Shown here: positions 57,304 through 59,940 of the stretch, in pieces
Layout: each line of letters opens with the position of its first letter
How positions within the stretch are numbered: the stretch's first letter is position 1
Assembly: GCA_947460175.1 (NCBI GenBank)
Contig: CANHGW010000007.1
Coordinates: forward strand, 15,302-79,301
DNA: 64,000 bases
DNA from: Bacteroidota bacterium
Lineage (GTDB): Bacteria; Bacteroidota; Bacteroidia; Chitinophagales; Chitinophagaceae
Direction of reading: 5' to 3'
Made by a program: the position numbers and the translations under genes
The notes under the pieces: generated by a model
Databases searched by the model: none
Told to the model about the DNA's origin: nothing
The model's input: the letters and a program-made list of their open reading frames with translations, nothing else

Positions 57304-57996
57304 TTATAAAATACCTTCATCTGCAAAACTAAAATAAGCATTTTCGGCTAGTATTACGTGATCCAATAAAGTCAATTCTAGTACTTTGCCACCTTCTTTT
57401 ATTCGTTGTGTCAATACTTTGTCGGCTTCGCTTGGTGTCAAATTGCCGGATGGATGATTGTGTGCCAATACAATTCTCGAAGTTCCTGTAATCTCAAGAG
57501 CTTTTTTGAAAATAATACGCGGATCTACAACAGTTGAAGTCATACCCCCTTTACTGATAAGTTCTATGGACAATACTCTGTGTGCCTGATTGAGGTATAC
57601 AACATAAAACTCTTCAGCTTGTTTGTCAAGAAAATAAGAGTTCAATAAATTAAAAATGTCTTTACTCGTATTGATTTTAGGTTTTTCGAGAGCCGAAGCC
57701 AATTGCCGTCGTTTTCCCAATTCAAGAGCTGTCAATATTGTAATCGCTTTCTTTTCTCCAATTCCTTTCACTTTACTGATATCTTTTAATGTAAGCTTTC
57801 CCAGTTCCAACAAATTGTCATTACCTAAGGAAAGAATTTCCTTAGCAATATCCAAAGCACTCTTCTGTTTTGAACCTGTATTGATTAAAATTGCCAATAA
57901 TTCAGCATTCGTTAAGGCACTTGGGCCTTTTTGAATCATTTTTTCCCTAGGTCGCTCATCTAAAGTCCAGTTTTTTATACTTTTAAAATTTTCCAT
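57304..57996 (-). CDS. radC: RadC-family JAB-domain protein
   Basis: HhH region (VKGIGEKKA) and JAMM motif LAHNHPSG. The ATG at 57996 is preferred over the TTG at 58005. Confidence 0.85.
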   Translation of the reverse strand: MENFKSIKNWTLDERPREKMIQKGPSALTNAELLAILINTGSKQKSALDIAKEILSLGNDNLLELGKLTLKDISKVKGIGEKKAITILTALELGKRRQLASALEKPKINTSKDIFNLLNSYFLDKQAEEFYVVYLNQAHRVLSIELISKGGMTSTVVDPRIIFKKALEITGTSRIVLAHNHPSGNLTPSEADKVLTQRIKEGGKVLELTLLDHVILAENAYFSFADEGIL

Positions 57997-58000
57997 ATTT

Positions 58001-58092
58001 ACCAAATTCTAATTGGAAACTACCAAATACTCATTAAAAAGTGCAATTTACTCATTTGTCTTCAAAAAAAATAGCCTACCAATATACATTTG
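58001..58092 (+). promoter_or_regulatory. upstream module of sRNA copy 1: three 21-bp-phased 13-mers plus -7 box
   Basis: 13-mers start at 58001 (ACCAAATTCTAAT), 58022 (ACCAAATACTCAT) and 58043 (GCAATTTACTCAT). TACATTTG is at 58085-58092. Confidence 0.55.
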
Positions 58093-58095
58093 CAT

Positions 58096-58153
58096 CAAGT
58101 AGGTTATTTATGTGATTTTTCAATCAGAGCCCATCGTCAAGATGGGCTTTTTT
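58096..58153 (+). ncRNA. candidate small RNA, paralog 1
   Basis: The conserved block AGTAGGTTATTTATGTGATTTTTCAATC starts 6 nt after the -7 box. It ends in the terminator AGCCCATC-GTCAA-GATGGGCT plus a T-run. Confidence 0.55.
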
Positions 58154-58286
58154 GTTTTTATTCCTTTTTTTGAGACTTTATCATTATAATTCATATTTAA
58201 AACTAGTTGATTATTTTAATAGCTTAAAAATCAGAAATTTCACTTGAAAGAAATTAATTTAAAATTTCAATTGAAACATTTAATTC

Positions 58287-58377
58287 ACCAAATACTCATC
58301 TTAAACTACCAAATACTCATCTTAAACTACCAAATACTCATTTTGCCCAACAAAAATATATATTCACTTTATATTTG
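58287..58377 (+). promoter_or_regulatory. upstream module of sRNA copy 2: perfect 21-bp tandem repeat x3 plus -7 box
   Basis: ACCAAATACTCAT occurs at 58287, 58308 and 58329. TATATTTG is at 58370-58377. Confidence 0.6.
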
Positions 58378-58380
58378 CAC

Positions 58381-58441
58381 TCAGTAGGTTATTTATGTGA
58401 CTTTTTCAATCACAGGCCCATCGCAAGATGGGCTTTTTTTA
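58381..58441 (+). ncRNA. candidate small RNA, paralog 2
   Basis: Same conserved 5' block, terminator GCCCATC-GCAA-GATGGGC plus T8. Confidence 0.55.
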
Positions 58442-58507
58442 TTTCGATATCTTGATTTATTACATACATTTAATTTATCGATATATATGTGTTTGAATAC
58501 ATATTTA

Positions 58508-58599
58508 TCCAAATTCTCATAGATTATTACCAAATACTCATTTAAAACGACCGAATACTCATTTAACTATAAAAAGTTAGCTCAACAGCTATACATTTG
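58508..58599 (+). promoter_or_regulatory. upstream module of sRNA copy 3: three 21-bp-phased 13-mers plus -7 box
   Basis: 13-mers start at 58508 (TCCAAATTCTCAT), 58529 (ACCAAATACTCAT) and 58550 (ACCGAATACTCAT). TACATTTG is at 58592-58599. Confidence 0.55.
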
Positions 58600-58602
58600 T
58601 TC

Positions 58603-58662
58603 TCAGTAGGTTATTTATGTGATTTTTCAATCCGAAGCCCATCGTAAGATGGGCTTTTTTTT
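58603..58662 (+). ncRNA. candidate small RNA, paralog 3
   Basis: Same conserved 5' block, terminator AGCCCATC-GTAA-GATGGGCT plus T8. The hairpin abuts the stop of the convergent NUDIX gene. Confidence 0.55.
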
Positions 58663-59263
58663 ATACTATCCGAAACAAATCTTGAATAGATTCATAGGTA
58701 TTGTTTAATTGAAATTGAATATTGTTCAAGTGTATCCATAGCGCTTTTTTAATTCCTTCTGCCTCTTGTGGAATCAGTATCAAATCATCGGATGTCATTT
58801 TGTACCAATAAGTGGTTTTAAAAACCATGGAATCTTCTAAATATAAATGGTAAGTAGTTAAAAGATGATGTTGAATAACCAATGATTGAACACCCGTTTC
58901 TTCTTTTACTTCTCTTACTGCACATTCTTCAATGGACTCTCCAGGATCTAATTTCCCTTTTGGCAAATCCCATTTTTTTCTACGATATATAAACAACACT
59001 TCATTCTTTGAATTAAAGACAAGTCCACCAGCTGCAGTAATAGAGCTGAGAGAAGATGAAATGATTGATAAATTAGTTTCAATATTTCCTTCTATAATGA
59101 AATGCTGAATATCTGATACCATCAGCTGATCTAAAATATAATTCAACTTCTGAGAATTCAACTCAAATACTATATAGGCATTTTTTAGTTGCAATTCATC
59201 GATCAATGTTCGATGATTCTCGATAAGATATATTCGTTTATCGTTAAAGTTGATTTTAATCAT
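58661..59263 (-). CDS. NUDIX hydrolase
   Basis: Nudix box GKLDPGESIEECAVREVKEETG. Confidence 0.8.
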   Translation of the reverse strand: MIKINFNDKRIYLIENHRTLIDELQLKNAYIVFELNSQKLNYILDQLMVSDIQHFIIEGNIETNLSIISSSLSSITAAGGLVFNSKNEVLFIYRRKKWDLPKGKLDPGESIEECAVREVKEETGVQSLVIQHHLLTTYHLYLEDSMVFKTTYWYKMTSDDLILIPQEAEGIKKALWIHLNNIQFQLNNTYESIQDLFRIV

Positions 59264-59310: not shown

Positions 59311-59940
59311 ATGAAGCGTGAATTAGCTGTTGCCGAAAAATTACTACAAATTAATGCAGTAAAATTAAATCCTCAAAATCCATTTACTTGGGCAAGTGGT
59401 TGGAAAAGTCCTATTTACTGTGATAATCGCACCATACTATCTTTTCCTCATGTAAGAGATTTCATAAAAAGTGAAATGACCAATGCTGTATTTACAGAAT
59501 TTCCAGATGCAGAAGTAATAGCTGGTGTAGCTACTGCAGGTATACCACATGGTGCGCTTGTGGCCGATTTATTGAGTTTGCCATTTATATATGTTCGATC
59601 AAAACCAAAAGAGCATGGTATGGGTAACCAAATTGAAGGTGTGTTACAAAAAGGTCAGAAAGTAGTCGTGATAGAAGACTTAATAAGCACTGGCAAAAGC
59701 AGTATGGAAGCTGTTGTTGCTATTCAAGAAGCTGGCGGGGAAGTCATTGGACTCACAAGTGTATTTACCTATGGTTTTCCGTTGGCCGAAAAAGTATTTG
59801 GCGAAGCAGGCATCAAAACATTGAGTTTAAGTAATTACAATGCACTTCTCGAATTAGCAATGCAAAAAAATCTAATATCGGAAACAGAACTTGAATTATT
59901 AAAACAATGGAGAGAAAATCCATCGGCATGGGGTCGATAA
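59311..59940 (+). CDS. pyrE: orotate phosphoribosyltransferase
   Basis: FTWASGWKSPIYCDNR and the PRPP-binding loop VVVIEDLISTGKS. Start at the ATG at 59311. Confidence 0.9.
   Translation: MKRELAVAEKLLQINAVKLNPQNPFTWASGWKSPIYCDNRTILSFPHVRDFIKSEMTNAVFTEFPDAEVIAGVATAGIPHGALVADLLSLPFIYVRSKPKEHGMGNQIEGVLQKGQKVVVIEDLISTGKSSMEAVVAIQEAGGEVIGLTSVFTYGFPLAEKVFGEAGIKTLSLSNYNALLELAMQKNLISETELELLKQWRENPSAWGR

Follow-up and report, generated by a model that had tools for sequence, protein, structure and literature searches.

Tandem Paralogous Genes for a Putative Small RNA Family with Repeated Upstream Boxes in Chitinophagaceae

A 64,000-nt stretch of a Chitinophagaceae genome (GenBank assembly GCA_947460175.1, contig CANHGW010000007.1, positions 15,302 to 79,301; here called the window) carries three paralogous RNA genes of about 57 nt, which lie head-to-tail on the plus strand in the gap between radC and a gene for a NUDIX hydrolase. 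Each unit is a sharply defined module composed of putative operator boxes, a promoter, a candidate seed, and a terminator. The RNAs form a family that has not been described before, and they are of a familiar kind known as sibling small RNAs (sRNAs). Comparison among relatives makes it very likely that the units are independently transcribed sRNA genes. The longer chain of proposals, in which these are activator-induced, multicopy, trans-acting sRNAs that use their 5′ block as a seed, seems to us somewhat better than an even bet, with a probability of about 0.55.

The sequences themselves establish the anatomy of the genes, their conservation, the covariation in the terminators, the regular period of the boxes, and the confinement of box pairs to these genes in about 0.84 Mb of DNA. 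What we infer, namely transcription, activator binding, and base-pairing in trans, would fit together as follows. Each unit would be a separate noncoding RNA gene whose transcript starts at the A of AGUAGG, downstream from a sigma-A-type Bacteroidota promoter, and ends at a GC hairpin followed by a run of U residues. An activator whose sites have LytTR-like or AraC-like geometry would bind the repeats, which are spaced by 21 bp or two helical turns and have their cores in constant phase at about −48, −69, and −90, and would turn on every copy at once. Amplification in tandem, to between one and seven copies, would then be a means of setting dosage. The near-invariant and weakly structured 5′ portion of 26–28 nt would be the functional part, most likely base-pairing in trans with mRNAs in the way that the 5′ seeds of FopS and GibS do in Bacteroides. 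The 3′ hairpin would serve only as a terminator and stabilizer, and probably would also end the convergent NUDIX transcript.

Anatomy of the RNA units and their upstream boxes

The components of each unit are given below, followed by the two flanking genes. Scores are from a position weight matrix (PWM) for the boxes and from a covariance model (CM) for the RNAs.

58001–58055, plus strand: putative operator of unit 1, with boxes at 58001–58013 (ACCAAATTCTAAT), 58022–58034 (ACCAAATACTCAT), and 58043–58055 (GCAATTTACTCAT); PWM scores 20.1, 26.3, and 15.4 bits
58085–58092, plus strand: −7 box of copy 1, TACATTTG
58098–58153, plus strand: predicted sRNA copy 1; block 58098–58125, stem 58129–58135/58141–58147, loop GTCAA, T6; CM score 66.3 bits; predicted fold −18.4 kcal/mol, z −4.0
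58287–58341, plus strand: putative operator of unit 2, with three perfect boxes ACCAAATACTCAT starting at 58287, 58308, and 58329
58370–58377, plus strand: −7 box of copy 2, TATATTTG
58383–58440, plus strand: predicted sRNA copy 2, with an extra C; stem 58416–58422/58427–58433, loop GCAA, T7; CM score 79 bits; predicted fold −19.0 kcal/mol, z −4.6
58508–58562, plus strand: putative operator of unit 3, with boxes starting at 58508 (TCCAAATTCTCAT), 58529 (ACCAAATACTCAT), and 58550 (ACCGAATACTCAT)
58592–58599, plus strand: −7 box of copy 3, TACATTTG
58605–58662, plus strand: predicted sRNA copy 3; stem 58637–58643/58648–58654, loop GTAA, T8; CM score 68.6 bits
57304–57996, minus strand: radC, divergent from unit 1 and the upstream neighbor in about 20 loci
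58661–59263, minus strand: NUDIX hydrolase gene, convergent with the array and the most conserved neighbor of the sRNA

A previous examination of this gap from its letters alone (the sequence-only reading) had reported promoter boxes, blocks, hairpins, T-runs, and an ATG-TGA start-stop at 58110–58115, all of which we found exactly where it had placed them. The promoter boxes follow the consensus TAnnTTTG and begin at 58085, 58370, and 58592. These three sites are the only matches to that consensus on the plus strand of 57990–58700, and 5 variable nt separate each of them from AGTAGG, which begins at 58098, 58383, and 58605. In Flavobacterium psychrophilum, a −7 motif of the TAnnTTTG type is located at −12 to −5 (PMC9723704).

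The near-invariant 5′ block of each copy can be written AGUAGGUUAUUUAUGUGA(C)UUUUUCAAUC, or equivalently AGTAGGTTATTTATGTGA[C]TTTTTCAATC. A block of 29 nt was matched in none of 100 shuffles. The near identity of the 28-nt block reported earlier is correct, whereas the difference in copy 2 is not the T/C substitution that had been proposed but a 1-nt insertion (GTGA-C-TTTTT). A variable linker of 3–5 nt separates the block from a stem of the form GCCCATC-loop-GATGGGC, whose loop sequences are GTCAA, GCAA, and GTAA in copies 1, 2, and 3 and whose T-runs lengthen from T6 through T7 to T8. All three hairpins are called by a terminator scan. In a window whose GC content is low, at about 33%, the RNAs of about 60 nt are predicted to fold with energies of −18 to −19 kcal/mol (z about −4 to −4.6).

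The best candidate for structure within the 5′ block is a hairpin of the form AGGUUAU-UUAU-GUGACUU, for which the predicted energies are −1.5 to −3.9 kcal/mol. Because this hairpin is marginal and no better than those of shuffled sequences, the 5′ block is probably accessible, and its earlier description as single-stranded is a reasonable one.

The repeat unit had been taken to be about 70 nt long. It is in fact about 165 nt, reaching roughly 100 nt further upstream, where it includes three boxes of 13 nt each. These direct repeats, (A/T)CCAAAT(A/T)CTCAT, precede each promoter with an exact spacing of 21 nt and at a fixed distance from the predicted start site. Their consensus across relatives is TACCAAATACTCATT, which can be extended to TACCAAATACTCATT.AAA. 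A PWM built from relatives gives the nine boxes in the window scores of 12.5–27 bits, and consecutive boxes spaced by 21 nt occur there as six pairs, compared with 0 in 20 dinucleotide-preserving shuffles.

This arrangement is widespread among the relatives. Boxes, numbering two to four, are present in 72 of 79 distinct promoters, with the ACTCAT core at −49, −70, and −91 (±1) as counted from the G of GTAGG. In approximately 0.84 Mb of scanned DNA (1.68 Mb on both strands) there are 137 box pairs, and every one of them is at an sRNA unit. Nearly all (133) lie directly upstream of an sRNA that matches the exact search pattern; the other four belong to a copy with a 1-nt deletion, an extra pair, and a copy that is cut at the edge of its locus. 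The window promoters have no good TTTG at the canonical −33 distance, and neither do most promoters of the family. Because a good −33 element is missing, the promoters look activator-dependent.

The boxes also touch the flanking gene. The distal box of unit 1 is 5 nt from the start codon of radC, and for this reason the leader and promoter of radC must overlap the operator. In several species the radC-proximal unit carries the variant box GCAATTTACTCAT, whose reverse complement holds TAAATTGC, a promoter motif of the TAnnTTGY type on the strand of radC. Other sequence features were seen between or before the boxes. Two AT-rich palindromes that are 27 nt apart, TTTCACTTGAAA (58238–58249) and TTTCAATTGAAA (58265–58276), lie between unit 1 and the unit 2 boxes and could be a further protein site. 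Similar motifs, TTTTCAATTG, stand ahead of the distal box in several units of loci L004 and L044.

Conservation, copy number, and neighboring genes

A genome scan with the pattern GTAGGTTATTTWTGTGA, using one genome per species, returned 97 stretches. In all, 70 distinct RNA sequences were collected from some 40-plus metagenome-assembled genomes (MAGs) of Chitinophagaceae from freshwater and sludge, where the RNAs occur in arrays of one to seven copies. The block is thus kept well outside this strain, which was one of the checks proposed by the sequence-only reading. Matches with full anatomy are confined to MAGs of Chitinophagaceae, Chitinophagales, and "Bacteroidetes," together with a few Third Party Annotation (TPA) bins titled as other taxa, and every carrier genome found is a MAG. 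In all full-anatomy copies a −7-type box (mostly the canonical TAnnTTTG) is followed, after a variable spacer of five or six bases, by the block, and the copy closes with a terminator and its T-run; an A precedes the block in 69 of the 70 distinct sequences. Matches in other phyla are bare 17-mers in unrelated sequence, with neither promoter nor terminator.

An alignment of 55 sequences reveals compensatory double changes in all nine pairs of the terminator stem (9/9). The stem has the sequence GCCCATC, GTCTTTCA, CCCTCC, ACCCGTC, GTGTCCGAC, or others in different species. The 3′ element is accordingly a GC-rich stem-loop with a U-run whose stem is kept by compensatory changes, as is characteristic of intrinsic terminators. 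In the same alignment, the 5′ block varies by G-C to G-U exchange alone, and its hairpin is without covariation. A CM built from this alignment of relatives finds exactly three copies in the window, at 66–79 bits, with the next match at 21 bits. Over the collected loci, true copies score at least 39 bits (mostly 54–80) and noise scores at most 23.5 bits. The window thus holds three paralogues, each with a predicted promoter and terminator of its own and all with a shared putative cis-regulatory site, as expected for sibling sRNAs. Comparative evidence of this sort backs the earlier proposal that these are independent small transcription units, each with a conserved 5′ region and a predicted intrinsic terminator.

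The earlier suggestion that the RNA belongs to no described family holds for Rfam 15. At the gathering threshold, the only matches in the whole window are two tRNAs. When the region 57900–58800 was searched with cmscan at E ≤ 10, the best match was isrD at 26 bits (gathering threshold 37), and all matches were driven by the terminator. The literature that we searched makes no mention of this RNA family. In the one paper that touches on Chitinophagaceae small RNAs, the subject is dCas12f guide RNAs, whose anatomy and context are different (PMC13472631). Viral contigs gave 0 matches to the RNA.

In another species, whose NUDIX protein is 59% identical, the NUDIX-radC gap (locus L004) carries seven copies. 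A third species, with a NUDIX protein that is 54% identical and a different neighboring gene, has a single copy with an unrelated terminator stem. A MAG assigned to "Filimonas sp." also has one copy. In the cultured relative Ferruginibacter sp. SUN002, examined by synteny, there is no room for the RNA after the NUDIX gene. Two aberrant copies were encountered, one with a 1-nt deletion in the block (GTAGGT-ATTT; L105, 5199–5254, minus strand) and the other without the U-rich segment CUUUUUCAA (L027, 3633–3682, minus strand). Either copy could be a pseudogene, the result of a sequencing error, or a functional variant.

The number of copies differs even between assemblies of one species. The window does contain the three copies first reported, and this number is specific to the strain or assembly: a metagenome contig with an identical NUDIX protein has six units in the same gap (L001, 10600–11900, minus strand). 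Two further contigs (L002 and L003) end inside the array. Copy 3 of the window is a hybrid, in which the upstream part corresponds to copy 3/4 of the six-unit array and the downstream part to its copy 6. This mosaic suggests either that recombination between copies deleted part of the array or that the array collapsed during assembly. Arrays of relatives have six, seven, and five or more copies. The range of one to seven copies, with three versus six in one species, constitutes a natural dosage experiment, and a variable array explains why assemblies break at this locus.

Clustering of the open reading frames (ORFs) from 55 loci revealed the genomic context of the family. The NUDIX gene is present in 34 loci at a median distance of 57 nt, pyrE lies behind NUDIX in 32, and radC occurs in 20. 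The neighbors as a whole comprise NUDIX, pyrE, radC, an MBL-fold gene, arfB, YebC, accA, and coaD. In about 27 loci the last sRNA terminator is within 0–8 nt of the NUDIX stop codon or overlaps it, whether the upstream neighbor is radC, arfB, YebC, or another gene. In the window, the T-run at 58655–58662 overlaps the NUDIX stop codon at 58661–58663. The linkage to NUDIX is most simply explained by a terminator that is shared and works partly in both directions.

The NUDIX homologues carry the names Filimonas, Ferruginibacter, Flavitalea, and Chitinophagaceae, and the window derives from an uncultured freshwater member of this family. The catalytic domain is closest to Thermus Ndx1, an enzyme named Ap6A hydrolase, and to the Ap4A hydrolase of Aquifex. 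The N-terminal extension of about 70 amino acids has no recorded Pfam match and no match among solved structures. Unrelated loci that have neither NUDIX nor radC also carry the RNA; in one example it lies between accA and a gene for a membrane protein, and in another it is close to a gene for an S8 peptidase. The presence of copies at unrelated loci favors a function in trans.

Pairing in trans weighed against other explanations

Several results weigh against the view that the RNAs are induced by an activator and pair with mRNAs through the 5′ block. No target emerged when the whole window was scanned for duplexes, and the best match other than to the RNA itself was 15 bp inside pyrE, which is about the level of chance. 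This match (59393–59407, plus strand, approximately codons 28–32) comprises 15 consecutive pairs, two of them G-U, with GACUUUUUCAAUCAC of copy 2. The synonymous positions of pyrE vary freely in 27 orthologues, and because these sites are not conserved the predicted pairing is probably due to chance. Complementarity to the initiation regions of NUDIX, pyrE, radC, MBL, and glyS across species is at background, and nothing convincing was found among the initiation regions of 51 ORFs in the window. The 5′ block has no CAU with which to cover a start codon, and its invariance over about 26 nt exceeds that of typical seeds, such that a protein or another conserved partner would fit equally well. 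Pairing with the 3′ domain of 16S rRNA was not better than that of shuffled sequences (60/500).

The argument for selection on the block must also allow for ascertainment, which accounts in part for the invariance of the 17 nt that formed the search pattern. Independently of the pattern, RNA positions +18 to +26 are 89% conserved, compared with about 42% for the spacer between the boxes and the −7 box. Copies that were reached by synteny are equally invariant, and every paralogue in an array keeps the block. Spacers have diverged beside an identical block, which argues for selection on the RNA and not for homogenization of whole units by gene conversion.

Likewise, eight promoters are entirely without boxes, and no regulator gene linked to the locus was found: clustering of ORFs from the 55 loci yielded only housekeeping neighbors. 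Ten mid-size ORFs of the window were also examined, and there was no transcription factor among them. The box-less promoters (about 100 nt upstream of the sRNA in loci L016, L023, L031, L048, L060, L061, L099, and L104) combine an A-tract (AAAAAAAATAT...) with a TTG at about −33, and their genomes often carry several unlinked copies of the sRNA. Promoters of this class suggest that expression in those lineages would be constitutive rather than induced.

The invariance of the 5′ block and the lack of an evident target are central to a different explanation, in which the whole 5′ domain of about 26 nt (a weak hairpin and a U-rich tail) is read by a conserved partner. This partner might be a protein, such as an RbpB-type protein with an RRM, or a structural RNA. 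A dedicated activator of arrays that reach seven genes would in this case release, in a burst, decoy RNA that sequesters or delivers a protein, in the manner of CsrB or 6S RNA, instead of pairing with mRNAs. This possibility strikes us as rather unlikely. It has in its favor that the block does not change over about 26 nt among species with NUDIX proteins that share only 50%–60% identity, a length greater than that of usual seeds; that multicopy arrays suggest a stoichiometric role; and that our searches found no complementary target. RbpB, moreover, binds FopS RNAs through their 5′ part (PMC11697453). The RNA nevertheless carries a single short motif, whereas known sponges repeat their binding motifs; the 5′ hairpin is without covariation and does not exceed shuffled sequences in stability, and the locus has no linked gene for a candidate protein. 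If true, this explanation would bring a CsrB/6S-like principle to Bacteroidota, a phylum in which we know of no such system. A more remote variant would pair the A-initiated RNA with the adjacent Ap4A/Ap6A-hydrolase-like NUDIX protein as a capping and decapping system.

The arrangement of the genes raises the prospect that the array acts in cis. Convergent transcription of the antisense sRNA genes and their hairpins would terminate or process read-through from NUDIX, by transcriptional interference or antisense pairing, and thereby would set the expression of radC, with an activator over the radC leader or promoter coupling the two. The constant placement of the sRNA 3′ end at 0–8 nt from the NUDIX stop codon, or overlapping it, regardless of the upstream neighbor in about 27 loci agrees with this idea. 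So do the shared strand of NUDIX and radC, which enclose the array in about 20 loci, the position of the distal box 5 nt from the radC ATG, and the TAnnTTGY-like TAAATTGC on the minus strand that overlaps the proximal box of unit 1. We nonetheless judge a function in cis to be quite unlikely. The RNA is also found at loci without NUDIX or radC, interference needs no invariant sequence of 26 nt, and six or seven full promoter-RNA units would be excessive for termination alone.

Two other readings are essentially excluded by conservation across species, covariation, the frame-breaking indel, the change of ATG to TTG, and antisense stop codons. It is highly improbable that the array is a selfish or nonfunctional tandem repeat, or an assembly artifact, with fortuitous promoter-like and terminator-like sequences. 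Such a reading would account for three versus six copies between assemblies of one species and for contigs that break inside the array. However, dozens of species have the element at a syntenic site, frequently in one copy only, with sharply different conservation of block and spacer and with covariation in the terminator, and it is absent from viral contigs and from the remainder of the window. Translation of a start-stop AUG-UGA element, a small peptide, or a type I toxin on either strand is extremely improbable. The ATG-TGA at 58110–58115 is real and sits 5 nt after AGGU, yet initiation led by a Shine–Dalgarno sequence is rare in Bacteroidota. Moreover, three of the seven paralogues of L004 carry an A-to-T change in the block that turns this ATG into TTG, which makes the start-stop probably incidental. 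A 1-nt indel between paralogues breaks longer frames, ORFs across the units are not conserved, and the antisense of the block has stop codons in all three frames.

Four further candidates were ruled out. A dispersed repeat of the repetitive extragenic palindromic (REP) or miniature inverted-repeat transposable element (MITE) type was considered, including the scattered, promoterless REP-type element that the sequence-only reading had raised against itself. Within the 64-kb window the RNA is confined to this gap; it is syntenic with NUDIX in about 34 of 55 loci and always has promoters. A type I toxin-antitoxin system resembling Sib/Ibs is inconsistent with antisense stops in all frames, the indel, and the lack of a conserved ORF. 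A riboswitch or attenuator leader does not suit a downstream neighbor (NUDIX) that is convergent in most loci, and there is no riboswitch match. Guide RNAs of the dCas12f/TnpB type are encoded adjacent to dcas12f/rpoE or tnpB and have a scaffold of 85–105 nt followed by a 3′ guide (PMC13472631). The arrays described here have housekeeping neighbors, and their variable 3′ part is a self-complementary terminator.

Known systems and the putative regulon

The closest precedent for these RNAs appears to be FopS of Bacteroides thetaiotaomicron, a family of 14 paralogues of approximately 65–70 nt that have a single-stranded conserved 5′ end and a terminator (PMC11697453). FopS RNAs are transcribed from sigma-A promoters, are bound by RbpB, and repress at the initiation regions of susC genes (PMC11697453). 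[quoted passage not shown] An inducer-specific regulator has been postulated for FopS as well. In contrast, FopS genes are dispersed and associated with polysaccharide utilization loci in Bacteroidales, whereas the RNAs of Chitinophagaceae form head-to-tail arrays at one housekeeping locus and have an operator with a 21-bp period. No similarity to FopS emerged from cmscan at E ≤ 10, in an Rfam copy for which the presence of a FopS model is unconfirmed.

The system closest in arrangement is LhrC1-4 of Listeria monocytogenes, which has no sequence relation to the RNAs here. Among LhrC1-5, the near-identical LhrC1-4 are in tandem, and every one of them has a promoter and a terminator to itself; the sRNAs are induced by LisRK, share seeds, and provide redundant dosage. 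LhrC RNAs are about 110 nt long with three CU-rich seeds, belong to Firmicutes, and associate with Hfq. Other multicopy sRNAs, namely the csRNAs of Streptococcus (controlled by CiaR), Qrr1-5 of Vibrio, OmrA/B, and PrrF1/2, are likewise defined by a transcription-factor site that they share and that keeps a constant distance to the start of transcription. CiaR recognizes the direct repeat TTTAAG-N5-TTTAAG, and the sRNAs of all these groups combine a conserved unpaired region with a terminator. They differ from the present family in their factors, motifs, and phyla, with an 11-bp, sigma-54, or Fur geometry and mostly without long arrays.

The geometry of the boxes has its own precedents. The sites of LytTR regulators such as AgrA, ComE, and PlnC consist of a 9-bp repeat and a 12-bp spacer, which gives a period of 21 bp, and the geometry of AraC/XylS sites is similar. 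AgrA drives the RNA regulator RNAIII. We know of no published consensus for LytTR or AraC regulators that is similar to the box CCAAATACTCAT. The direct repeats upstream of the P2 and P3 promoters are binding sites of AgrA (PMC4227749). The likeness to LytTR and AraC sites is one of geometry only, comprising direct repeats with a period of about 21 bp immediately ahead of a promoter whose upstream element is poor. It differs in that there are usually three boxes here instead of two, and no gene for such a regulator is linked to the array.

Post-transcriptional regulation is, to our knowledge, almost unexplored in Bacteroidota outside the gut Bacteroides, and we know of nothing reported for Chitinophagaceae, a family that abounds in lakes, in soil, and in activated sludge. 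The family is distinctive for its unusually clear putative operator, its unusually long invariant region, and its copy-number polymorphism in this poorly studied group. The 13-nt box could be used as a probe to fish out the regulator, and the 26-nt block could be used to read an environmental signal and to help predict targets.

A search for further members of the putative regulon, with the box-pair pattern over metagenome contigs, was swamped by (TACTCAT)n microsatellites that mimic the 21-nt period. Long heptamer repeats of this kind are common in metagenome contigs, including L110, L138, L143, L154, L187, L207, L211, L227, and others. Only L131 and L216 proved to be true sRNA promoters, and one candidate that does not precede an sRNA was found on an unrelated metagenome contig (L134, 2040–2180, minus strand). 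There the boxes AAATACTCATT, CCAAATACTCATT, and TCAAATACTCAAT are spaced by 21 nt upstream of a gene for a lipoprotein of 445 amino acids with internal repeats of about 95 amino acids. It is possible that this gene is a protein-coding member of the sRNA regulon.

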